From: Oscillospiraceae bacterium
GTDB taxonomy: Bacteria > Bacillota > Clostridia > Oscillospirales > Ruminococcaceae
Direction: 5' to 3'
Length of the DNA stretch: 64,000 bases
NCBI GenBank assembly: GCA_021769525.1
Contig: JAETSQ010000003.1
Coordinates: forward strand, 36,151-100,150
In this document: positions 11,071 to 37,180 of the stretch, in pieces
How the letters are laid out: each line of letters opens with the position of its first letter
Position numbering within the stretch: position 1 is the first letter of the stretch
Notes under the pieces: generated by a model
Database searches by the model: none
The model's input: only the letters and a program-made list of their open reading frames with translations
What the model was told of the DNA's origin: nothing
Translations under genes and position numbers: made by a program

Positions 11071-11121
11071 AAATTTCAGACTCCTTTTTTGTGGGGTGAC
11101 AAGACTTTCCCATATCATACG

Positions 11122-11775
11122 TCAGCAGAAATCGGCGCCGGGGCCCTCCGGCAGAAGGATGCGCTTCCCTTCCCGGCGGATGCGGCCCTCCGCCTCCAGG
11201 GCCTCCAGGGCCCGGTAGAGGGAGGCCCGGCCGATGTTCAGCGCCCTGGCCAGCTGGCTGTAGCCGCCGGCGATCTCCGCCGTGCCGTCCCGCTGGATGG
11301 CAAGCAGATGGCGGTAGAGGGTCTCCTGGGCGTTGGGGGCGGTGAAGCTGTCGATCTTCCGGTTCAAAAACCGGATGCGCTGGGACAGGAAGGCGATGTA
11401 GGCCACGGCGGCGGGGGGATGCCGGGCGAACAGGCCGGTGAGCCATTGGTCGGAGAGGAACACCAGCGCCGCGGAGGTCTTTGCCGCCACCGTGGTGACG
11501 TAATCCTCCGCCGGGCAGAAGATGGCCGCCGCCCCGAAGCACTGCCCCGGTCCCAGGGTGTTCAGCAGCAGCTCCTTCCCCTTGAGCACCGAGAGGTTCC
11601 CCTCCAGCACCACCCCCATGGCCCGCCGGAACTCCTGCCGGCTGTAGATCACCTGGCCGGGGTCGTACCGCTCCGCCGAAAGGCCGGCGGTGAGGGCCGC
11701 CAGCTCCTCCGGCGGAAGGTCTTGGAAAAGGAAGAACCGGGACAATAGGCGCAGGTGCGCAGGGGAAAGGGACAT
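11122..11775 (-). CDS. Crp/Fnr family transcriptional regulator
   Basis: cNMP-binding-like domain (LGPGQCFGAAAIF) and C-terminal HTH (SQLARALNIGRASLYRAL). Confidence 0.88.
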   Translation of the reverse strand: MSLSPAHLRLLSRFFLFQDLPPEELAALTAGLSAERYDPGQVIYSRQEFRRAMGVVLEGNLSVLKGKELLLNTLGPGQCFGAAAIFCPAEDYVTTVAAKTSAALVFLSDQWLTGLFARHPPAAVAYIAFLSQRIRFLNRKIDSFTAPNAQETLYRHLLAIQRDGTAEIAGGYSQLARALNIGRASLYRALEALEAEGRIRREGKRILLPEGPGADFC

Positions 11776-13501: not shown

Positions 13502-13702
13502 ATGGAAAAATTTGTCCCCTATGAAAAACTCTCCAAGCGGAAAAAGCGGGAGCTGAACGCCAAGGGGCGGAAGGGCTGGAACGGGCTGAACCCCGTCACC
13601 CGCAGGCCCCCGGACCCCAAGGCCTATGACCGCAGAAAAGCGCCCCGGTGGCAGGAGGAGCCGCCGGAGCGTTTTTTTGTTGGTGCAGGCCGGGCTAGAT
13701 GA
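13502..13702 (+). CDS. Small basic hypothetical protein (66 aa)
   Basis: SD gaaaggag; MEKFVPYEKLSKRKKRELNAKGRKGWNGLNPVTRRP. Confidence 0.7.
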   Translation: MEKFVPYEKLSKRKKRELNAKGRKGWNGLNPVTRRPPDPKAYDRRKAPRWQEEPPERFFVGAGRAR

Positions 13703-15443
13703 GCAGCCGCACCGTGATGATGCGATCCCAGGTGTTGCGGCCGATGATGCCGTCCGCCGGGAGGTCGAAGAGGTTCTGGAAGGCCACCACCGCCCGCCGT
13801 GTGGAAGGGCCGAAGATGCCGTCTATGGCCACGGAGGGGATGTCGTACCGCTGGCTGATGGTCTGCAAATACTCCTGCATCAGGCGGACGTTGTCCCCCC
13901 GGCTCCCCTCCCGCAGCAGCACGCCGGGGTAGGGGATCACCAGGCCGCTGGTATTGGCGATGCCCATAAAGATATCGTAAAGGCTGCTCCAGGTGGCGGG
14001 GCCGATGATGCCGTCCGGGGTGAGGCCGAATCGCTTCTGGAAGTCGATGACCGCGTTCTTGGTGGCGGGGCCGAAGATGCCGTCCGGCTGGATGGGGCGC
14101 ACCGAGTAGTAGTAGTTGGAGATGACCCGGAGGAAATACTGGGCCAGCCGCACGTAGGGCCCCCGGTCCCCCTGCCGGTAGACTCCGCCGGGGCGGGTCT
14201 CCGGCAGGGGCTCGCTTTCGCCCCCCAGCTCCGCCAGGCGGGTGACCGCCACATAGATGTTGGAGATGCGGTTCCAGGTGCCCCGGCCCACGATGCCGTC
14301 CTGGGTGAGGTTGAAGATCCGCTGGAAGGCCAGCACCGCCGCCCGCGTGTTGCTGCCAAAGATGCCGTCCACCGGGGAGATGGCCGGGAGGGCCGGGTAG
14401 TTGCGGCGGATGCGGTTCAGCTGCCGCTGGATGGTGCGCACCGCCGCACCCCGGCTCCCCATCTGGAGGGGGGAGCCGGGATAGGAGCTTTCGATATTGC
14501 GCACCTGGCGGGCCTGGACCAGCTCCACGTTCCCATAGTACCGCCGGAGGATGTTGATGGGGTAATACCCCGCCTCCGCCAGGGAGACGGTGCCCCATTG
14601 GGAGAGGCCGGCACAGGTGACGGTGGTGCCGTTGCAGTACTCGGCAAAGAGGGGATTTAACGCTCCGGGCCGCCGGATGTAGGTGGTGAAGATCTCGTCC
14701 ACGATGCGGCTGATGTTGGTGAAGATATTGCGGCCGGGAACGTAGTACTGGTCGTAGCCGGTGTGATTGGTGATGTTGAAGCTGTACCCCCGGCTGGGAT
14801 ACCATTCGGTAAAGACCCGGTTGAGAGCAAAGGAGATCTGGGCGTAGATGTTGGCCCGGATGGCGTTTTCCGGCCAGGTGGGGTAGATCTCGCTGCTGGC
14901 GACGTTTTTGATGTAATGGGCGAAGTCCACCGTCATGTTCCGGGCGGAGGAGTCGCTGGGGGCCCCCAGGTGGACGGTGATGTACCGGGGGATGTAGACG
15001 GTATCCAGCACCCGCCCGGCGGGGACGTCCTCCTCCGGGCCGATGGGCTGCTGGTCCGGGGTGGTGCGCAGGGCGTTGGGGGGGATCTCAAAGACCTCCC
15101 CAGGCTCCTGCTCCCGGTCCACCGGCTGGGGGTTCATCTCCAGGGGGACCACCGAATCCACCCCGGCAAAGACCTGGATGCCCCGGATGGTCACGGGGGA
15201 AAAGCCCTCCGCCAGCACCTGGGCATCGTACAGCCCGTAGGGGAGGGCCTGGGCTTCCGGGTCCAGGCTGAGCTCCTGGGGCGGGGCGCAGACCCGGAAG
15301 GGCGGGGTGCGCCCGGAGATATTGGTGGTAAAGGTGGTCCGCCGACCGGTGCGAGGATCGGTGAGGACTACAATGGCGCCCTGCACCGGTGTCGCCTCCC
15401 GGCCGGAATAAAGCTGGAAAACCAGCGAAGAGGATCGCTGCAT
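13695..15443 (-). CDS. sleC: SleC-like spore cortex-lytic enzyme with three peptidoglycan-binding domains
   Basis: ATG 15443 after SD aaggag. YIKNVASSEIYPTWP, LNRVFTEWY, GLSQWG (SleC/SpoIID-type catalytic region). Three 'V..FQ..F.L..DGI.G..TW' repeats. Confidence 0.8.
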   Translation of the reverse strand: MQRSSSLVFQLYSGREATPVQGAIVVLTDPRTGRRTTFTTNISGRTPPFRVCAPPQELSLDPEAQALPYGLYDAQVLAEGFSPVTIRGIQVFAGVDSVVPLEMNPQPVDREQEPGEVFEIPPNALRTTPDQQPIGPEEDVPAGRVLDTVYIPRYITVHLGAPSDSSARNMTVDFAHYIKNVASSEIYPTWPENAIRANIYAQISFALNRVFTEWYPSRGYSFNITNHTGYDQYYVPGRNIFTNISRIVDEIFTTYIRRPGALNPLFAEYCNGTTVTCAGLSQWGTVSLAEAGYYPINILRRYYGNVELVQARQVRNIESSYPGSPLQMGSRGAAVRTIQRQLNRIRRNYPALPAISPVDGIFGSNTRAAVLAFQRIFNLTQDGIVGRGTWNRISNIYVAVTRLAELGGESEPLPETRPGGVYRQGDRGPYVRLAQYFLRVISNYYYSVRPIQPDGIFGPATKNAVIDFQKRFGLTPDGIIGPATWSSLYDIFMGIANTSGLVIPYPGVLLREGSRGDNVRLMQEYLQTISQRYDIPSVAIDGIFGPSTRRAVVAFQNLFDLPADGIIGRNTWDRIITVRLLI

Positions 15444-15514
15444 GGTAACACTCCTTTCCCGGCCCCGGCAGGGGGGCCTTTCGTAACCGGTGATGGGGGC
15501 GGTTACTTTGTACC

Positions 15515-15541
15515 ATCCTATGCAGAAAATGCCGGTTTGGT
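15515..15541 (-). promoter_or_regulatory. Putative sigma-K promoter of sleC
   Basis: Minus strand reads AC-N17-CATAggAT, matching the sigma-K pattern AC-N16/17-CATA---T. Short motif, so weak. Confidence 0.4.
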
Positions 15542-15564
15542 AAAAATTCCACTCCCTGGGTGGG

Positions 15565-15593
15565 TTGCCATTTGACAAATTTTTCAGTATAAT
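15565..15593 (+). promoter_or_regulatory. sigma-A promoter
   Basis: TTGCCA, 17 bp, TATAAT. Confidence 0.6.
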
Positions 15594-15677
15594 AAAAGAA
15601 ATATCGAAATGTATGCAACAAAACAGGGGTTTTTATCGTACTATATAACAGAAAGCGGATGTGGAGGTACAAAACCT

Positions 15678-16949
15678 ATGAAGAAATTTCTCTCGGCAGT
15701 CCTGGCCATCGTGATGATGGCCTCTATGGCGGCCATGGCATTTGCGTTGGATTTTGAAACCGATAACGATGGAAACAAGGTCCTTCCCGGCCAGGAGCTG
15801 CGGATCTATACCGATAACTTTATAGACGAGAAGGACGGGGGCACCCCCGGCACCCTGGACCACGAGTACCACAGCATCTCCGCCAGCTGGAAGAGGGGCG
15901 CGAACTACATCGAGCGCACCTACTTTGAGGACGGGGACGGCTTCGTTCGGGTGCGCATCAAGCCGGGACTGAATCTCACCGCCGATGCGACCCTCACCGG
16001 CACCCTGAAGATCCGGGACCGGGGAGCCGACGAGGGCACCACCGTCTACACCCTGCGCATCGAGGAGGGGGATCTGTACATCACCTCGGTGGATAACGAG
16101 GAAAAATCCAATATGGTGCGCACCGGGGAGAAGGAGTTCAGCCTCCCCTATGACTACATGGAGAAAAAGGTCCGCTTCATCACCGATGACGAGGACGACC
16201 AGGAGCGGTACGGCACCTTCACCGCGGAGTTTAGCAACGGCTCCGGCACCGATGTGGCCAAGTATGTGGTGAAGGTGGTGGACCAGAGCCCCCTGTACCT
16301 GGGCTTTAACGAAAGCAGCAACGCCACCGTGGCGAAGAAATACCCCAATGCGGATCTGCGGTTCGTCAGCTGGAGCGCCGTCCCCACCTTCGACCTGGAG
16401 GGCAAGCTCTATATCTACATGAAACCCAGCGAGTACATCTACGGGATCGATAAGGACAACAATCTTTACCGCCTGGGGGGCAGCTACGACAGCAGCGAGG
16501 GCGCCTATGTCATCAAGACCAAGACCCTGGGCAGCTATATCGTCAGCGATACCCAGCTGGTGAACACCGGCAGTCAGACCTCCTCCGCGGCCCCGGTGTC
16601 CTCCTCCACCGCGCCGAAGCCCAGCAGCTCCACCCCACCCCCCGCCCCTTCCAGCTCCAGCGCGGCCCCCGCTCCCTCCAGCGACCCGGACACCGGCGGC
16701 GCGTCTGAGCCGGAACCCGAACCGGAGCCTGAGCCGGAGCCCGTCCCGGAGACCTCTTCCAGCCAGCCGGAACCGGAGAGCGAGCCCGCCGATACCGAGC
16801 CCGATGAGGAAAAGGGCGGCTTCCCCCTGGTGCCGGTGCTCATCGTGGCGCTGGTCATCGTGGCGGTGGTCTGCGGCGTCATCCTCATGGGCAACAAGGG
16901 CAGCCACGGCAAGGGCAAACGGAAACACTTTGACGATTGGGACGACTAA
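15678..16949 (+). CDS. Secreted, C-terminally membrane-anchored surface protein of unknown function
   Basis: Signal peptide MKKFLSAVLAIVMMASMAAMAFA, beta-rich body, S/P- and EP-repeat linker, C-terminal TM and charged tail. Confidence 0.85.
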   Translation: MKKFLSAVLAIVMMASMAAMAFALDFETDNDGNKVLPGQELRIYTDNFIDEKDGGTPGTLDHEYHSISASWKRGANYIERTYFEDGDGFVRVRIKPGLNLTADATLTGTLKIRDRGADEGTTVYTLRIEEGDLYITSVDNEEKSNMVRTGEKEFSLPYDYMEKKVRFITDDEDDQERYGTFTAEFSNGSGTDVAKYVVKVVDQSPLYLGFNESSNATVAKKYPNADLRFVSWSAVPTFDLEGKLYIYMKPSEYIYGIDKDNNLYRLGGSYDSSEGAYVIKTKTLGSYIVSDTQLVNTGSQTSSAAPVSSSTAPKPSSSTPPPAPSSSSAAPAPSSDPDTGGASEPEPEPEPEPEPVPETSSSQPEPESEPADTEPDEEKGGFPLVPVLIVALVIVAVVCGVILMGNKGSHGKGKRKHFDDWDD

Positions 16950-30290: not shown

Positions 30291-30423
30291 AGGGCCCGCC
30301 TGGCTGGTAGGCCGCAAAACAAAATGCCGCTTTCCCCGCAAAGAGCGCAAACGAAAAGGGCCCGCCGAGAGGCGGACCCTTTTGCTTAGGTCGCAGGCCC
30401 CCCGGAGGGGGCCGTTTTTTTGT

Positions 30424-33400
30424 TTAGGCGCTGGGCTGTTCGTTGGGGTCGGTCGTTTCTGCCGGCGTCTCCGGAGTTGGGGTTTCAGGGGTTGTTGGGT
30501 CAACGGGATTTGGATCGACAGGATTCGGGTCGACAGGATTCGGGTCAACGGGATTTGGATCGACGGGATTTGGGTTGTCAGGATTATCCGGATTCGTGGG
30601 GCCCACCGGATCCACCGGGTTGGGATTCTCTTCTTCCGCCGCGGTAACAGTCACCTCGCAGGTGACCTTGATAGTCCCCGCTTGGGCGGTAATGGTGGCT
30701 GTGCCCGCCTTAATGCCCTTCACAGTACCGCCGCTGACGGTAGCAACGCTGGAGTCGCTGCTGCTCCAGGTGATGGTGTCGGTGCTGTTTGTCGGCTCTA
30801 CAGTGGCACTCAAACTTTCGCTGGCCCCTGCCTTAAGGGTGAGATTTCCGGGTACTCCTGTGATACCGGTAGCCGGAGTGGATGCGGCGTTGACCGTAAC
30901 GGAGCAGGTAGCGGTAAGATTGGTTCCCGCAACCTTAGCGGTGATTGTAGCACTGCCAACCTTTACAGCGGTTACAGTGCCGCCGCTGACGGTGGCAACG
31001 CTGGAGTCGCTGCTGGACCACTCAATTGTACCGGAGGCCCCCTCCGGTGTCAAGTTAGCGGAGACGGTTCCGTTGTCGCCCACTTTAAGGGAAAGGCTGC
31101 TGGGATTGAGACTGATGCCGGTGGGCGCCACGGTGCCGGGCTTCACCGTCACCTTGCAGGTGGCGCTGACATTCCCCGCCTTGGCGGTGATGACGGCTTC
31201 GCCTGCCGCGATGCCCCGCACCGTGCCGCCGCTGACAGTGGCAATGCCCTCGTTGCTGCTGGACCAGGTGATGGTGTCGGTGCTGTCGGCCGGTTCCAGG
31301 GTGGCATGGATGGCGGCGGTCTCGCCCGCCTTCACCTCCAGGCTCCCCGGCATACTGATGCCGGTGGCAGCCACCGCGGCCTTGGTGACGGTGACGTTGC
31401 AGGTGGCGGTAAAGCCGCCCTCCGCCGTGGTGACGGTGATGACGGCGGTGCCCTCCTTCATGCCGGTCACCTTGCCGTTCGCGTCCACTGTGGCGACGTC
31501 GCCGTTGCTGGTGGTCCAGGTCACCGCCTTGTTGAAGGCGTTCTCCGGAAGCACGGTGGCCACAAGGGTCTCGCTCTTGCTGATGGCTAAGGTAAGGTCA
31601 GTCCGGTTCAGGGTCACGCCGGTGACGTTGGCCCCCTTGGCGGCCATCAGCTCCTGCACCTTGGACCACTTGCCGGCTTTCAGGAGTTCCTCTTCGGTGA
31701 TGCCCAGGGCCTCCGCCGCGGCGCGGCGCTCCCTGGCGGTGCTCACCCGCTTGGAGGGGGAGAGCTCGCTCATCTCCTCCTCGGAGAGGAAGAGCCGGAA
31801 CTCCAGGGTGCGCTCCTCAATAAGGTGGAGCATGGCCTCCAGGTCGTCCTCCAGATCAAAGAGCTCGTTGGAGGTGAGGTACTTCTTGGCGTCGGCCTCC
31901 CGCTGCTGGGCCAGGGCCTTCTGCTCCTCCAGGGAGAGGTTCTTCTGCTCCTCCTCGGTGAGCCACTTGGCGTTGATCTGCTTCTCGGCCTCTTCCTGCT
32001 GGCGCTTCAGCTCGGCCTCCTGCTGCTTCTTCAGGTGGGCGTACCACTCGGCGGGCATCACGGGGTTGGTGTTGATGGTGGCCCCGGCGGTATCCACGTC
32101 CAGGGACTCCCCGTCCCGCACCTTGCGGGCAAAGACCACGAACCGGGCGATGTGATCGCCGTTCTCCGCCTTGAAGGAGTAATCGCAGGTGGACATGGTG
32201 AGGAGGAGGTCATCGGTGCGGACATCCACCTTGGTGTTCAGGATGGAGCGCTCCCGGATCTTGTTGACGTACTCCGCCATCTCCTCATCGCTTTCCTTAT
32301 CGATGAAGTTGTGGTAGAGGAAGTCGGGGTCGTCCTTTTTGCACACCACAACGGCGAAGATCTTGTACATCCCCTCGTAGTAGACGCTGTCGTAGCTCAC
32401 CAGGGGGTGGGTGCGGTAGAAATCGATGGACTTGTACTTCAGCAGCTCGCCGAACATCTGCCCGTCGTTCATGTTGTGGGAGTAGATGATGGTATTGGTG
32501 CTGGGCTCCCGCTGGAACACCCGGTAGTCCACAAAGGCCACGCCGTGCTGGTTGCTGGCCCCGGTGAAGTCCCGGCGCTCGTAGTACAGGTTGTCGTCGG
32601 TCTGCACCACCACCATGTCCAGGTGCTCGGTGCCGTCGATCTTGATCCACCCGGCCACGTCCGGGTTCTGGGCGTAGAGGGCGGCGAATTTGGGCAGGTA
32701 GCCGCTGGGATAGCCGTCCACATCCTCCGGGCGGATGTCCGAGTTGCTGTAGGCGTCCCGCTGGTTCTGGACCAGTCCCTTGTTCTTGTGGGACTCCCCG
32801 AAGACGCTGCCGATGTAGATGATGCAGCCCACGAACACCGCCACCGAAAGGCCGAGGATGCCCAGACGGAGGCTGTCCTGCTTTGTGAGTTTTTTATAAC
32901 GGATCTTCTGAATGAGATTCATGTCCTTCGCTTCCTTCTCTCCGTTGGGGTCATTGGAGGAGCCGCCCCTGGGCAGAAGGCCGGAGACGGCGGCCAGCAG
33001 CCGGTCCACCGGGCTCTGCACGCCGGGGGCCGCGTGGCTGAGGGGCACTCCGCCGGGCAGCTGGGCCGGATAGTGCTGGAGGTAGAGCCGCAGCATATTC
33101 AGCACCTGGACACAGGCGGCGGAACGGATGGCCTCCGCCGGGCAGTCCGGGGGGAGGATGAGCTTTTTGGCCCACACCTGCCGCCCGTCGGTGACGGCGG
33201 CGTAGATCTGCCCCGCCTTGGGGCCGCTGGGGTCCACCCCGCAGGTGACCGCCAGGCCCAGGCTGGCCCCGGCCTTTTTGCGCACCAGGGCGGCCATGGC
33301 GGCGGCCACCCGGCGGCTGACGCCGCCCGCCTCCTTCAGGAGCTTTTCCGGAACGCCCAGGCGCTCCACCTTCTGGCTGTCGGTGGGGACGGTCATCCCC

Positions 33401-34287
33401 CCCAGCAGCACCTTGTCGGTCTGGCCGCCCCCCTTGAGGAGGGAAGCCAGGTGCCCGCCGGTGCCGGATTCGGCGGTGGCGGCGGTGAGGCCGTGCTTTT
33501 GGAGGAGGCGGTCCACCTGCTGGTTCAGGGGCTCTCCCTGGGTGCTGGTGAGAAGGGCGCCCAGCCGCTCCCCGATCTCCTGGGCCATCTCATCGCACCG
33601 GGCCTGGGCATCCGCCCCGGCGGCGGTGATGTGTATCTCGCACTCCCCGCCCTGGCTCTGGAGGGCCACGCGGGGATTCTGGGAGCGGAAGTAGGGCTCC
33701 AGCTGGGAGCGGATGGAGGTCTCCCCCAGCTCCACCGCCCGCAGGGTCCGCTGGGCGGAGGAGCCGCCCCCCACCCCGGCCAGCATCTGCCGCACCGTGG
33801 AGGTGAAGCACCCCATCAGCTCGCTGGGGGTGGCGGGGAGCACCAGCATCAGCTGCTTTTTCGCGCTGAGGGCGTACCCCTGGACCATGCCGGAGGGGTT
33901 CAGGATCCGCCGGCACCCGCCGGGGGCGGCGGCAAAGGCCTCCACCTCCGCCTGGGTGTAGGGGGCCGCCTCCTGGGAGGCCCTGCGGGCCAGTTGGCGC
34001 ACCAGGGCGGGGTCGATGCGGGGCTCCAGCCGCAGCCCCTGGCAGACCGCCTCGGTGACCGCGGCGGCCGCCGCCGGCTCCGGGGTGGTGAGGACCACCA
34101 CCAGGTCGCCCCGCTGGGATACCTCCAGCAGCTGGGCAAAGACCTCCGCTGTCCGGCCGGGGACCAGCCGGGAGCTGCCCAGGGTGACGCCCAGGGCGGC
34201 CAGCTCCCGCTGGAGGTACTCCCGCGACGCCTCAAAGAAGCTCTGATATTTGCTTTGGTTTCCAACGCCGATGATCTCTGCTCTCAT
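30424..34287 (-). CDS. CinA-like domain - TM - class B sortase - helical stalk - 4x Big_2 - Pro-rich tail fusion (1287 aa)
   Basis: N-terminus MRAEIIGVG and ATAESGTGG (CinA-like); single TM at about aa 475-497; sortase His604 (IIYSHNM), Cys701 (LTMSTC), Arg715; four 'TW.SS...VATV..G.V' Ig-like repeats. Confidence 0.85.
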   Translation of the reverse strand: MRAEIIGVGNQSKYQSFFEASREYLQRELAALGVTLGSSRLVPGRTAEVFAQLLEVSQRGDLVVVLTTPEPAAAAAVTEAVCQGLRLEPRIDPALVRQLARRASQEAAPYTQAEVEAFAAAPGGCRRILNPSGMVQGYALSAKKQLMLVLPATPSELMGCFTSTVRQMLAGVGGGSSAQRTLRAVELGETSIRSQLEPYFRSQNPRVALQSQGGECEIHITAAGADAQARCDEMAQEIGERLGALLTSTQGEPLNQQVDRLLQKHGLTAATAESGTGGHLASLLKGGGQTDKVLLGGMTVPTDSQKVERLGVPEKLLKEAGGVSRRVAAAMAALVRKKAGASLGLAVTCGVDPSGPKAGQIYAAVTDGRQVWAKKLILPPDCPAEAIRSAACVQVLNMLRLYLQHYPAQLPGGVPLSHAAPGVQSPVDRLLAAVSGLLPRGGSSNDPNGEKEAKDMNLIQKIRYKKLTKQDSLRLGILGLSVAVFVGCIIYIGSVFGESHKNKGLVQNQRDAYSNSDIRPEDVDGYPSGYLPKFAALYAQNPDVAGWIKIDGTEHLDMVVVQTDDNLYYERRDFTGASNQHGVAFVDYRVFQREPSTNTIIYSHNMNDGQMFGELLKYKSIDFYRTHPLVSYDSVYYEGMYKIFAVVVCKKDDPDFLYHNFIDKESDEEMAEYVNKIRERSILNTKVDVRTDDLLLTMSTCDYSFKAENGDHIARFVVFARKVRDGESLDVDTAGATINTNPVMPAEWYAHLKKQQEAELKRQQEEAEKQINAKWLTEEEQKNLSLEEQKALAQQREADAKKYLTSNELFDLEDDLEAMLHLIEERTLEFRLFLSEEEMSELSPSKRVSTARERRAAAEALGITEEELLKAGKWSKVQELMAAKGANVTGVTLNRTDLTLAISKSETLVATVLPENAFNKAVTWTTSNGDVATVDANGKVTGMKEGTAVITVTTAEGGFTATCNVTVTKAAVAATGISMPGSLEVKAGETAAIHATLEPADSTDTITWSSSNEGIATVSGGTVRGIAAGEAVITAKAGNVSATCKVTVKPGTVAPTGISLNPSSLSLKVGDNGTVSANLTPEGASGTIEWSSSDSSVATVSGGTVTAVKVGSATITAKVAGTNLTATCSVTVNAASTPATGITGVPGNLTLKAGASESLSATVEPTNSTDTITWSSSDSSVATVSGGTVKGIKAGTATITAQAGTIKVTCEVTVTAAEEENPNPVDPVGPTNPDNPDNPNPVDPNPVDPNPVDPNPVDPNPVDPTTPETPTPETPAETTDPNEQPSA
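30497..30571 (-). repeat. 5 x 15-bp coding tandem repeat (PNPVD)
   Basis: gggtcaacgggattt-type units at 30497, 30512, 30527, 30542 and 30557. Confidence 0.9.
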
Positions 34288-34315
34288 GGAATCATGACCT
34301 CCAAGGGTTTATAAA

Positions 34316-34477
34316 GAACCTGCATTCACAACCGTCTAACGCCGTCAGGCCGGGCCTTTTTTCGCCCTGCTGCGTTAAAAATCCTTGTAATACACCAAGT
34401 ATTCCTGCGGATTTTTGCCTTGCAGGACGGAAAAATTCCTCGGCCTGCCTGCATCATCCGGTCATGAATACAGGTTC
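34316..34477. mobile_element. MITE, subfamily B (162 bp)
   Basis: TIRs gaacctgcattcacaaccg / cggtcatgaatacaggttc (16/19), flanked by AAA on both sides; long internal rod hairpin. Confidence 0.75.
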
Positions 34478-34555
34478 AAACTTCCCACACATTCGGGTTC
34501 TTTATCTATTATAGCTATTATAGTGCAGCCGGCTTTCCGGCGGATGCGCAGCGCC

Positions 34556-35752
34556 TCAGACGGGCTGGCTGTGGTGGTGGAGGGAGAGGACGATAAGTTC
34601 CGCCTCCCGGACCGCTTCTTCAAAGAGTTCCGGGGGCAGGGCGGCCTCCTCCTCGATGCGGGCCACCTCGGCGGGCTTCGGCCGGGTGCGGGGGTGGCGG
34701 GGGGTGAAGACGGTGCAGCAGTCCTCGTAGGGGAGGATGGAGGTCTCGAAGGTGTCGATCTTCCGGGCGATGGCCACGATCTCGCTCTTATCCAGGCCGA
34801 TGGCGGGACGCAGCACCGGCAGGCCGGTGACGCAGTCGGTGACGCCGATGGCCTGGATGGTCTGGCTGGCCACCTGGCCCACGCTCTCCCCGGTGATGAG
34901 CCCCTGGCAGTCCTCCCCCAGGGCGATGGTCTCGGCGATGCGCATCATGGCCCGGCGCATCAGCAGGGTGAAGTATTCCTCCGGGCAGCGGTCCCGCAGC
35001 TGCTCCTGGATCCGGGTGAAGGGCACCACAAAGAGGCGGATGCGCCCGGTGTAGGGCAGCAGCTTTTCCCCCAGGGAGATGACCTTCTGGCGGGCCCGTT
35101 CGCTGGTGTAGGGGGGGCTGGCGAAGTGTACGGCGATAAGCTCCAGCCCCCTTTTCGCCATCATGTACCCGGCCACCGGGCTGTCGATGCCGCCGGAAAG
35201 GAGCAGGGCCGCCCGGCCCCCGGTGCCCACCGGGATGCCCCCGGCGCCGGGGAGCTGGTCTTTGTGTATGTAGGCGTCCTTTTCCCGGACCTCCACCGTC
35301 ACCGTCACTTCCGGGTCGTTTACATCCACCCGCAGGTGGGGGAAGCGGGAGAGGAGCAGCCCCCCCAGCTCCCGGCAGATCTCCGGGGACTTCATGGGGA
35401 AGGATTTATCGCTGCGCTTGGCGTTCACCTTAAAGGTCTTGGCCGCCGTAAGGCTGGCGGCAAGATAATCCGGGGCGGCGGCGCAGATGGCCTCCCAGTC
35501 CTTGGGGACCACCAGGGCGGGGCAGAGGGCGGCGATGCCGAATACCGTTTGGAGCCGCTCCACCGCCTCCTCCATCCGGATCCCCTGGGTGAGGGGTTCC
35601 ACGTAGACGGTGGACTGGCTCTTCCAGATGTGGAACTTCCCCAGGTCCTCCAGCCTCCGGCGGGCGTTTTTTATCATGGTATCCTCAAAGGAAGTGCGGT
35701 TGAGGCCCTTGAGGACCAGCTCCCCGCATTTTAAGAGTACGATCTCCTTCAT
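34556..35752 (-). CDS. thiI: tRNA 4-thiouridine synthase
   Basis: GELVLKGLNR, THUMP region, PP-loop LLSGGIDSPVA, GESVGQVASQT, PYEDCC. Confidence 0.95.
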   Translation of the reverse strand: MKEIVLLKCGELVLKGLNRTSFEDTMIKNARRRLEDLGKFHIWKSQSTVYVEPLTQGIRMEEAVERLQTVFGIAALCPALVVPKDWEAICAAAPDYLAASLTAAKTFKVNAKRSDKSFPMKSPEICRELGGLLLSRFPHLRVDVNDPEVTVTVEVREKDAYIHKDQLPGAGGIPVGTGGRAALLLSGGIDSPVAGYMMAKRGLELIAVHFASPPYTSERARQKVISLGEKLLPYTGRIRLFVVPFTRIQEQLRDRCPEEYFTLLMRRAMMRIAETIALGEDCQGLITGESVGQVASQTIQAIGVTDCVTGLPVLRPAIGLDKSEIVAIARKIDTFETSILPYEDCCTVFTPRHPRTRPKPAEVARIEEEAALPPELFEEAVREAELIVLSLHHHSQPV

Positions 35753-35765
35753 GCTCTCTCCTTCT

Positions 35766-36902
35766 TTATCTGACATGGGCCAGTTCCTCGCTCCCTTTTT
35801 GGAGCCACCGGCAAAATTCATCGATCTCATCAAGGGTGTTGTCCCGGCAGAAGCTGGCCCGGATGGCGCTGTCGATCCGCCGGGGCAGAAGGCCCATGGC
35901 GGTGAGGACGTGGCTCTTTGCCCCTTTGGAGCAGGCGGAGCCGCTGGAGACCGAGATACCCTGGCGCTCCAGGTAGTGGATCATCACCTCGGAGCGGATG
36001 CCGGGAACCGAAAAGTTCACTATATAAGGTGCAGCATCCGGGGGGGAATTGATGCACACCCCGGAGATTTTTTCAAGATTTTCTAAGAGGCGGCTCCGCA
36101 GGGCGTGGAAATGAGCCATATTTTCCTCCCGCTTTTCCCACATCTCCCCGGCGGCATAGGCGAAGGCGCAGGCGCCGGGGGTGTTCTCGGTGCCCGGATG
36201 ATGCCCCCCCTCCTGTCCCGCGCCGTAGTACAGGGGCCGCAGGCGGGTGCCCTTCTTGAGCCAGATGGCCCCGATGCCCTTGGGGGCGTGGATCTTGTGG
36301 CCGCTGACGGTGACGGCGTCCACATCCCAGAGGGCGGGCCGCACCAGGAGCTTTCCGAAGCCCTGAACACAGTCGCAGTGGATGAGGATGCGGGGGTTTT
36401 TCCGCCGGGCGGCCTGGGCGATGGAGCGGATGTCGTTGACGGCCCCCGTCTCGCTGTTCACCAGCATGACGGAAAGGAGCACCGTCTTTTCGTCCACCGC
36501 CGCCTCCGCCGCCTGGGGGGTGACGATCCCCTCCGGGGTGGGGGAGAGCAGGACCGTATCGAAGCCTTCCTCCGCCAGGTGCCGCACCGGGGCCAGCACC
36601 GATTCGTGCTCCACGGCAGTGGCGATCACCTTGTTTCCCCTCCGGCGGGCAGCCAAAGCGCCCCCCAGTACGGCCAGGTTGTTCCCCTCGCTGCCGCAGG
36701 AGGTGAAGAACACCTCCTCGCTGCGGACTCCCAGCACCTCCGCCAGTTCCCGGCGGGCGCCGGCAAGGGCCTGCTCCGCCAAAAACCCCCGGTGATGGAG
36801 GGAGGAGGGGTTCCCGTATTCCCCGGTCATCAGTTCCAGGGCCCTGCCGGCCGCCCCAGGGCTGACCCTGGTGGTGGCGCTGTTATCCAGGTAGATCTCC
36901 AA
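35766..36902 (-). CDS. iscS: Cysteine desulfurase (ThiI-associated, IscS/NifZ-like)
   Basis: TTG start. IYLDNSATT, YGNPSSLH, SGHKIHAPKG, SSGSACS. Confidence 0.88.
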   Translation of the reverse strand: MEIYLDNSATTRVSPGAAGRALELMTGEYGNPSSLHHRGFLAEQALAGARRELAEVLGVRSEEVFFTSCGSEGNNLAVLGGALAARRRGNKVIATAVEHESVLAPVRHLAEEGFDTVLLSPTPEGIVTPQAAEAAVDEKTVLLSVMLVNSETGAVNDIRSIAQAARRKNPRILIHCDCVQGFGKLLVRPALWDVDAVTVSGHKIHAPKGIGAIWLKKGTRLRPLYYGAGQEGGHHPGTENTPGACAFAYAAGEMWEKREENMAHFHALRSRLLENLEKISGVCINSPPDAAPYIVNFSVPGIRSEVMIHYLERQGISVSSGSACSKGAKSHVLTAMGLLPRRIDSAIRASFCRDNTLDEIDEFCRWLQKGSEELAHVR

Positions 36903-37180
36903 AGGGGCACCCCTTCCTGCCAGTTTTTTTGAGACGGGTATACAAACAGATACAGTATAGCGCAAACGGGAAAAAAGTTCAATCTTTTCCCGTGAAATTG
37001 GCACAGAAAACAGGGCGTACTTTATAGTAAAACGCTGAAAAAGGGAAAATATTGCATTCCGGAGGAAATTTTTTTCGGACAGGGCTTTCCAAATGCCTCA
37101 TGTTTGGTTAAAATAAATAAGTCGTAATCTCTCCAAGCGATCCCATCCGATCGGTGAACCCATGTTAGGAGGAATTCCCA

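Follow-up and report, generated by a model that had tools for sequence, protein, structure and literature searches.

Why would a bacterium join a protein of the CinA family, whose members are otherwise soluble cytoplasmic dimers, to a sortase on the far side of its membrane? The question is raised by a gene on the minus strand (30424..34287) of a 64,000-nucleotide stretch of contig JAETSQ010000003.1, here called the window, from a rodent-gut Angelakisella lineage, a Clostridium relative with a genome of 63% GC. The gene is a single unbroken frame in the list of open reading frames (ORFs), 1287 amino acids plus stop, and its product runs from a CinA-like head (COG1058-like, KH and PncC-like parts) through one transmembrane segment into a class B sortase, a helical stalk, four Big_2 domains and a proline-rich tail. 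Our reading, to which we give a probability of about 0.6, is that the protein is an active envelope transpeptidase carrying a non-catalytic, probably structural cytoplasmic head that it acquired by fusion within an operon.

An earlier note on this DNA, made from the letters alone, had described these parts as fused in one frame, and the Pfam and NCBIfam profiles and full-length homologues agree with it. All features of the gene lie on the minus strand. The degenerate COG1058/MoCF-like domain comes first (residues 1-175, 33763..34287); its Pfam match, MoCF_biosynth (PF00994, residues 5-169), scores 22.1 bits, under the cut-off of 26.6. The CinA KH-type domain (residues 179-244, 33556..33753) matches PF18146 at 43.4 bits, and the degenerate PncC-like domain (residues 252-402, 33082..33534) matches CinA (PF02464) at 86.9 bits against a cut-off of 23.5; the NCBIfam equivalog for whole CinA, PRK00549, gives 176 bits, far under its cut-off of 379. 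A linker (residues 403-473, 32869..33081) holds a conserved LPGGxP motif and Met456 and is of low confidence in AlphaFold2 (AF2) models, with a predicted local distance difference test (pLDDT) score below 50 at residues 434-453. It leads into the single transmembrane helix, a putative signal anchor (residues 474-498, 32794..32868), and then the sortase catalytic domain (residues 531-722, 32122..32697), for which Pfam Sortase (PF04203, residues 549-723) scores 34.1 bits, over its cut-off of 26.6, and NCBIfam srtB (TIGR03064) narrowly misses at 147.0 bits against 153.75. Beyond the sortase lie an extension, VRDGESLDVDTAGATINTNPVMPAEWY (residues 723-750, 32038..32121), which AF2 predicts to be ordered; a stalk rich in E, K and Q (residues 751-880, 31648..32037), modeled as helices from residue 746 and conserved in near relatives; the four Big_2 domains (residues 886-968, 972-1049, 1053-1133 and 1137-1215, together 30643..31632; PF02368, 172.5 bits against a cut-off of 22.8, and a self-profile); and the tail (residues 1216-1287, 30427..30642). 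Long ORFs on the opposite strand, such as 31825..34314 on the plus strand, were set aside as shadow ORFs of high-GC DNA.

The net charge flanking the transmembrane segment is +5 on its N-terminal side and +1 on its C-terminal side, and the region aligns with the N-terminal signal anchor of Bacillus anthracis SrtB. Because of these two features, the N terminus and the CinA-like head are predicted to lie inside the cell and the sortase outside, the topology that the earlier note had proposed. AF2 covers the segment with one long helix (residues 469-514).

Is the fusion real? Contigs of independent mouse and rat gut metagenomes bridge the junction without gaps (32365-34400 and 31126-33436), which rules out an assembly artefact there. 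In metatranscriptomes, contigs map to the head half and to the sortase half, and one of them crosses 32890-33378; the fusion is thus transcribed in vivo across the junction. An exact-sequence contig look-up with the window protein returned no match. Relatives were sought in three ways: a word-indexed cluster search, a scan of one genome per species, and HMMER on 50%-identity representatives. The first, queried with residues 1-760, found 10 further 90%-identity clusters that cover the whole query (46-74% identical, 1176-1304 amino acids long). The second found 52 loci, 22 of which have the full CinA-transmembrane-sortase arrangement at 77% down to 29% identity, and one more genome has a fusion without the PncC part; the carriers of the full form include the cultured type strain Angelakisella massiliensis and the isolate Oscillospiraceae PP1C4, as well as "Heteroruminococcus," an Anaerotruncus metagenome-assembled genome (MAG) and various Ruminococcaceae. 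The third gave 676 matches at E <= 1e-30 among 1.84 billion representatives; within the best 150 of these, about 110 are full CinA plus sortase, 13 to 14 are PncC-only plus sortase, and about 13 are COG1058-only plus sortase. A recognizable CinA-derived head is kept in 146 of 157 long-headed or fused representatives.

The earlier note had reasoned that an assembly artefact or a strain-specific stop loss would undo its proposal, or that relatives might carry cinA and srtB as two genes. The first two are ruled out by the independent contigs and by the presence of the fusion in many relatives, 22 species-level genomes across that range of identity. The last is true of more distant relatives, and it marks the origin of the fusion rather than an artefact. 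The note's further statement that no characterized protein has this architecture has held up, in that none was found in the literature; a search there returned nothing relevant on a CinA-sortase architecture, on sortases with SpoIID, on sortases with thiI and cinA, or on class B sortases of Ruminococcaceae. The NCBI label for members is only "class B sortase," and it conceals the architecture. The fusion is real, old, widespread in gut Oscillospirales and never studied, and the family is a form of class B sortase that is common in these bacteria yet uncharacterized.

Conservation is highest in the sortase, where the window protein and that of A. massiliensis share 74% identity, against 29-42% in the head. 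The putative catalytic residues His604 (in "YSHN"; codon 32476-32478), Cys701 (in "LLTMSTC"; 32185-32187) and Arg715 (in "ARFVV"; 32143-32145) are invariant in 11 close relatives and invariant or at least 90% conserved in alignments of 30 and 77 sequences, aligned to B. anthracis SrtB. All 15 sequence matches in the PDB are class B sortases, the best being 1rz2 at 1.8e-33. An AF2 model of the transmembrane, sortase and extension regions, built on the 77-sequence alignment, reached a pLDDT of 94.1, and in Foldseek its best 19 hits are all SrtB (TM-score 0.78-0.92, E down to 7e-21), with classes C, A and D following only after a gap (TM-score about 0.5, E about 1e-7). The ratio of nonsynonymous to synonymous substitution (dN/dS) in this domain is 0.006-0.2, and 0.006-0.02 in the unsaturated pairs L007/L056 and L009/L010. 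We conclude that the sortase is, to judge from these features, intact and of class B, as the earlier note had it from the same three residues, and that it belongs to a clade specific to Oscillospirales.

The extension behind the barrel marks this clade. It overlaps a signature, ARKVRxGExxVDTxxAxxNxNxxxPxW/Y, that falls at residues 720-749 in the window protein and forms the extreme C terminus of stand-alone sortases encoded in related operons; R721, R724, E727 and N739 are invariant even at 23% identity. The thought that "NTNPVMP.EWY," just after the sortase, might be an intramolecular pseudosubstrate or lid was discarded, as it is merely the C terminus of those stand-alone enzymes. In its N-terminal signal anchor, SrtB-type barrel with extra helices, catalytic triad and "LTxSTC" motif, the window protein resembles the class B sortases of B. 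anthracis (1RZ2/2OQW), Staphylococcus aureus (1NG5/1QWZ) and Clostridioides difficile (4UX7). Characterized SrtBs, however, have about 220-255 amino acids, of which only a few are cytoplasmic, and end with the barrel, and they are encoded beside their substrates in isd or pilus loci, whereas the window protein has a 470-residue cytoplasmic CinA-derived head, the C-terminal signature, a stalk, four Big_2 domains and no neighboring substrate.

What remains of the enzymes in the head? In the COG1058 ADP-ribose pyrophosphatase of Thermus thermophilus CinA (TtCinA), the Mg2+ ligands Glu12, Asp45 and Asp76 are "absolutely conserved," and Glu156 of the LPGxPxE motif binds the ribose (PMC4246079). The three ligands are lost in the window protein, where Q11, G44 and A75 stand in their places and the GGLGPTxDD block reads TTPEPAAAA (residues 67-75); Glu156 is kept as E156 (in "LPATPSEL"), in 11 of 11 close relatives and nearly all others. 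For the PncC activity of Agrobacterium tumefaciens CinA (AtCinA), Ala mutants of S31, Y58, K63 and R145 are inactive, and T105 and G106 of the TGxAGP loop also matter, with T105A retaining reduced activity (PMC5384747); Y58 and R145 match Y296 and R377 of TtCinA, the latter being its phosphate-binding Arg. Of these, S31 (S274, within AESGTGG at residues 272-278), K63 (K306, in "DSQK") and T105 (T348) are kept, and Y58 (P301) and R145 (C382) are lost. The TG(I/V)AGP oxyanion and ribose loop has become "TCGVDP" (within AVTCGVDP, residues 346-353), two residues shorter by deletion, and it differs in every close relative.

Every motif change quoted in the earlier note is thus present, as are the Ser and the Lys that it had singled out as remaining. 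Its picture of a degenerate head that may be a pseudoenzyme stands; it had missed the loss of the essential Tyr and Arg, and the Ser and Lys are not kept in all near relatives. Among the 10 nearest, six have Ala in place of Ser274 and one has Met in place of Lys306, and the two thus do not seem to be selected as a dyad. No close relative has a Tyr at the position of P301 (Pro, Ser, Ala or Thr occur there) or an Arg at that of C382 (Cys, Ser, Ala, Thr or Gly), and nearly every sequence of the ten nearest relatives has a different residue at the Tyr, Arg and loop positions. So variable a pocket points to relaxed selection and not to a redesign.

The decay has a history within the family. In a motif survey, the motifs were fully canonical in split cinA/pncC genes and in two distant fusions, L021 and L022, half eroded in L018 and L020, and eroded at every block in the Angelakisella clade. 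Among 110 fused representatives, 42 had all motifs, 45 none, 17 the PncC set only and 6 the COG1058 set only. By these motifs, the catalytic decay of the head is specific to lineages, with both CinA active sites lost in that of Angelakisella; the canonical CinA of the early-branching fusions is presumably active.

The fold has nonetheless been retained. An AF2 model from an alignment of 11 sequences has a pLDDT mostly of 80-93 in the head (82-93 in the COG1058-like domain), with the sortase half reaching only 29-70 in that model. Foldseek matched the COG1058 part to 6mr3 (TM-score 0.85, root mean square deviation [rmsd] 2.6 A) and the PncC part to PncC structures (TM-score 0.83-0.89, rmsd 1.3-1.5 A). 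The head's dN/dS is 0.05-0.3, and 0.05-0.14 in the unsaturated pairs named above, values that, like those for the sortase, were obtained by the NG86 method and are approximate in a genome of 63% GC. By published residue criteria, then, the head is predicted to be a pseudoenzyme that still has the CinA fold and is under purifying selection. It shares with CinA of T. thermophilus (4CT8/4UUX) and Streptococcus mutans (6MR3) and with PncC of A. tumefaciens (2A9S) and Escherichia coli the COG1058-KH-PncC order, the folds, and E156, AE(S)xTGG, K306 and T348; it differs from them in being tethered to the membrane and in lacking the three Mg ligands, the Tyr, the Arg and the TGxAGP loop.

Where did the fusion come from? 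In the window, the order is a NifS/IscS-type cysteine desulfurase gene, first in the unit and with an uncertain start (35766..37004, minus strand; assigned as Aminotran_5 by Pfam and by conserved order), thiI, encoding a tRNA 4-thiouridine synthase as upstream operon partner (34556..35752, minus strand; Pfam ThiI, THUMP and ThiI_fer), the fusion gene, and then a convergent GDPD gene. In the Angelakisella clade the fusion gene always lies downstream of the Aminotran_5 cysteine desulfurase and ThiI genes, and the NifS-ThiI order is kept also in L053-L061, L034, L031, L021 and L018. Distant relatives have the parts as separate genes. Ruminococcus flavefaciens 007c (L034:7055-14527) has NifS, a small ORF, ThiI, PncC (178 amino acids), sortases of 563 and 324 amino acids, and a SpoIID-like gene; L057-L060 (L057:4115-11280, L059:3079-10282) have NifS, ThiI, a PncC-type CinA of about 190 amino acids, three tandem sortases and a SpoIID-like gene, and in L057 the cinA and first sortase genes overlap by 41 nucleotides. 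L061 (4426-13782) has NifS, ThiI, four sortases and the SpoIID-like gene without cinA, and in L031 and L027 a full-length cinA directly abuts srtB. All sortase paralogues of these operons keep the His, Cys and Arg. The Oscillospirales operon NifS-ThiI-(PncC)-three or four SrtBs-SpoIID-like is apparently undescribed.

The adjacency of separate cinA or pncC and srtB in distant relatives implies that the fusion came from operon neighbors. CinA is cytoplasmic and the sortase begins with a cytoplasmic N terminus and signal anchor, and so a single in-frame fusion would have been topologically viable. By sortase-domain distance, PncC-only fusions are nearest to full-CinA fusions and not to the unfused operon sortases, which argues for a single origin; several independent fusion events, which would have argued for selection, are not supported. 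The simplest history consistent with these alignments is one fusion of neighboring, topologically compatible genes, after which domains were lost and the C-terminal module was exchanged. The unfused operon shares the upstream genes and the sortase clade signature (ARKVRxGExxVDT...N.N...P.W/Y) with the window. It differs in having separate proteins, a short and catalytically canonical PncC, several sortase paralogues and a SpoIID-like gene after them, where the window encodes a single chain that includes a full-length but dead CinA and a Big_2 module.

Two of these loci have odd breaks. In L031 the cinA-like and sortase ORFs are parted by one frame shift with a 40-nucleotide overlap (11233-11272), and in L027 they are parted by a single in-frame stop (11108-11110); sequencing errors in the MAGs, recent splits or sites of recoding could each explain these breaks. 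The operon of NifS, ThiI, (PncC), sortases and a SpoIID-like protein often precedes a gene for pyrimidine-nucleoside phosphorylase (PYNP) or a Zn-ribbon protein. Within the 64-kb window there is no second cinA, pncC or sortase.

How might such a protein work? In our reading, the working enzyme is the extracellular class B sortase, a Cys transpeptidase using the triad H604/C701/R715. An ancestral operon NifS-ThiI-CinA/PncC-(three or four tandem SrtB paralogues)-SpoIID-like, in which cinA abutted or overlapped the first sortase gene, underwent one in-frame fusion, and the resulting CinA-transmembrane-SrtB protein then spread through a large clade. The head, since it is still CinA folded and under purifying selection though catalytically dead, is probably retained for a non-catalytic job. 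CinA is an obligate dimer, which makes a stable cytoplasmic dimerizing or anchoring module the most likely one. Such a module could determine how the sortase and its stalk oligomerize, where in the membrane they sit or how stable they are. The sortase would sit next to the bilayer, with the charged helical stalk carrying the lineage-variable module through or along the wall.

Several points weigh against this reading. Residues that contact ligand in known CinA proteins persist in the head (E156, the PNPSG loop, AE(S/A)GTGG and T348), and because of them the head may still bind a ligand. The KH and PncC parts have been deleted in L014 (9917-12781) and L024 (8231-11221), which keep the COG1058-like domain, transmembrane segment and sortase, and the whole head is seemingly absent in P0046-like variants; a head is thus no strict requirement for the sortase. 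The selection estimates carry the approximation given above. Finally, a pattern scan for a C-terminal sorting-signal substrate (NPxTx or SPxTG, a hydrophobic stretch and a basic tail) found none, either in the window or at any of the fused loci, with the rest of the genome outside the scan, and so the sortase reaction itself is read from sequence.

The close packing of the ancestral genes admits a plainer account, which we consider unlikely: the fusion was a tolerated accident of operon collapse, the head is useless to the sortase, and a sortase-only isoform begun at Met456 may be the working product. Genes that overlap or abut can be fused by one frameshift, and the catalytic decay, the domain deletions, the apparently headless variants and an ATG with an AAGGA tract conserved just before the transmembrane segment in the Angelakisella clade would all fit. 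However, a useless head of 450 amino acids should vanish quickly, and nearly all of the long-headed or fused representatives keep one; it persists down to 29% identity with a low dN/dS and a confident CinA fold, and it is represented, like the sortase, in RNA contigs. Conservation of the peptide "EKExx(D/E)MNL" can account for the ATG and purine tract.

The ancestral operon suggests another role, also doubtful in our view, in which the sortase clade and its SpoIID-like partner form a peptidoglycan-remodeling or sporulation-type envelope machine that acts on wall precursors or wall-bound partners instead of classical sorting-signal proteins, with the head as a link to the cytoplasm. A SpoIID-like gene follows the sortases in L034 and L057-L061, and a SpoIID-like domain is itself fused in L018 and L023 (CinA-transmembrane-sortase-SpoIID), in L024 (COG1058-sortase-SpoIID) and in L027. 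The SpoIID-like proteins carry the signature GHGVGMSQxGA and no sorting signal. Within the multi-sortase operons of L034, L057, L059 and L061 no sorting-signal substrate was found, so that three or four tandem intact paralogues lack a nearby substrate gene, whereas distant stand-alone sortases do adjoin xPxT[GD] substrates. Yet the genes for substrates may simply lie at other places in the genome, Pfam gives only partial matches to SpoIID, and the sortase fold and triad are ordinary SrtB. The window genus has swapped the SpoIID-like module for helical repeats or Big_2 and has no SpoIID-like gene nearby, and housekeeping genes of unrelated function (NifS, ThiI and PYNP) share the operon, so the co-location may be historical.

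The stand-alone sortases in question are those of Lachnospiraceae and Ruminococcus, in which the upstream-adjacent gene ends in APNTG, SPKTG or VPKTD followed by a hydrophobic stretch and a basic tail (L028:2895-3614, L032:2177-2848, L036:5234-6706 and L037:7621-9708). Their sequences mark them as substrate-sortase pairs of the classical kind, in contrast to the fused clade.

CinA is paired with sortase in three ways: as adjacent genes, as a fusion with active CinA and as a retained pseudo-CinA. It is conceivable, though we would not expect it, that this pairing is a functional coupling and not a relic of history, in which the CinA module recognizes an envelope precursor linked to a nucleotide or lipid, or else a partner in the cytoplasm, and signals to a multi-sortase/SpoIID-like wall-remodeling apparatus specific to Oscillospirales. 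If so, CinA would gain an envelope function, and the clade would represent a new type of sortase system that does without classical sorting-signal substrates. Least probable is the metabolite-gated anchoring of the earlier note, in which the dead head still binds a ligand of the pyridine nucleotide or ADP-ribose type and switches or relocates the sortase through the membrane segment and dimer geometry: the head is indeed conserved, folded and under purifying selection, E156, the PNPSG(M/L)VQGY loop, AE(S/A)GTGG and T348 remain, and the cinA-srtB link is very old, but all Mg ligands and the phosphate-binding Arg and Tyr are gone with replacements that vary between close relatives, some relatives have lost the PncC domain but kept the sortase, CinA of the outgroups is separate and soluble and so could not gate anything across a membrane, and no precedent was found in the literature.

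The C-terminal part of the protein varies by lineage. The Big_2 block is present in L001, weak in L012 and found in the fragment P0168, and it is absent from other near relatives; other lineages have a SpoIID-like peptidoglycan-binding domain or helical repeats in its place. The four Big_2 copies, which the earlier note had taken for adhesion or substrate-capture domains, thus form a swappable, lineage-specific module that is not the defining part. The proline-rich tail is encoded by a 15-nucleotide tandem repeat of about six copies (30495-30585; Tandem Repeats Finder), giving (NPVDP)n, and holds no sorting signal by the sorting-signal scan. In other metagenomes the region 30437-31126 is polymorphic between strains, with skips of 122-479 bp and small indels across the Big_2 and proline-rich region, and the surface-exposed module likely varies in length between strains.

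The usual picture of a sortase is of a small enzyme that stands alone and whose gene adjoins that of its substrate. This clade of gut Oscillospirales departs from that view with a large cytoplasmic head derived from a NAD-salvage enzyme, interchangeable outer modules, no nearby substrate and an ancestral link to a multi-sortase/SpoIID-like operon. The members of the family also grade naturally from forms with active CinA, by way of partly decayed CinA and pseudo-CinA, to headless ones, a series that can show how an enzyme domain turns into a structural or regulatory appendage. The cellular role of CinA is still debated, and the family offers a new lead on it, as well as on an unstudied envelope operon of abundant gut Clostridia.

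Within the linker, the ATG of Met456 (32920-32922) is in frame 24 codons before the transmembrane segment, with GAAGGAAG/AAGGAC upstream (within 32923-32942) and its AAGGA tract 8-13 nucleotides 5' of the ATG. The ATG and purine tract are kept in the window and in L001-L004, L007, L011 and L056, and not in distant fusions. Met456 sits roughly where an ancestral stand-alone sortase would have begun, and internal initiation there, giving a sortase-only isoform, is possible. Farther downstream, a near-consensus promoter sequence of the sigma-70 type (TTGACA, 17 nucleotides, TACAAT; 11 of 12 consensus positions) lies on the minus strand inside the Big_2 coding region (31025-31053).

The gap between thiI and the fusion gene (34288..34555, minus strand) is 268 bp, compared with 30-43 bp in relatives. 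It contains GGAGG 9 nucleotides before the ATG, TATAAT-like boxes that may give the fusion gene its own promoter, and a dispersed hairpin repeat. The whole gap folds as a long hairpin (-114.6 kcal/mol), and no riboswitch or known RNA was matched in it. Copies of the repeat occur elsewhere in related Angelakisella MAGs (L002:9414-9515, L001:3878-3943 and L001:9918-9974), and at 34314-34400 the depth of metagenome contigs jumps about tenfold and many unrelated contigs end. This looks like an element of the MITE or REP type (miniature inverted-repeat transposable element or repetitive extragenic palindrome) inserted between the two genes. At the other end, between the convergent fusion and GDPD genes, a GC-rich hairpin with T-runs (30343-30417) is likely a bidirectional terminator; an Rfam suhB/mmgR hit on this hairpin is subthreshold (28.9 bits against 41) and probably spurious. 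The neighborhood downstream of the fusion gene is not conserved, and in L056 it holds DUF6017, DUF3801 and a VirD4-like T4SS-DNA_transf gene (13693-16493), where a conjugative element seems to have inserted.

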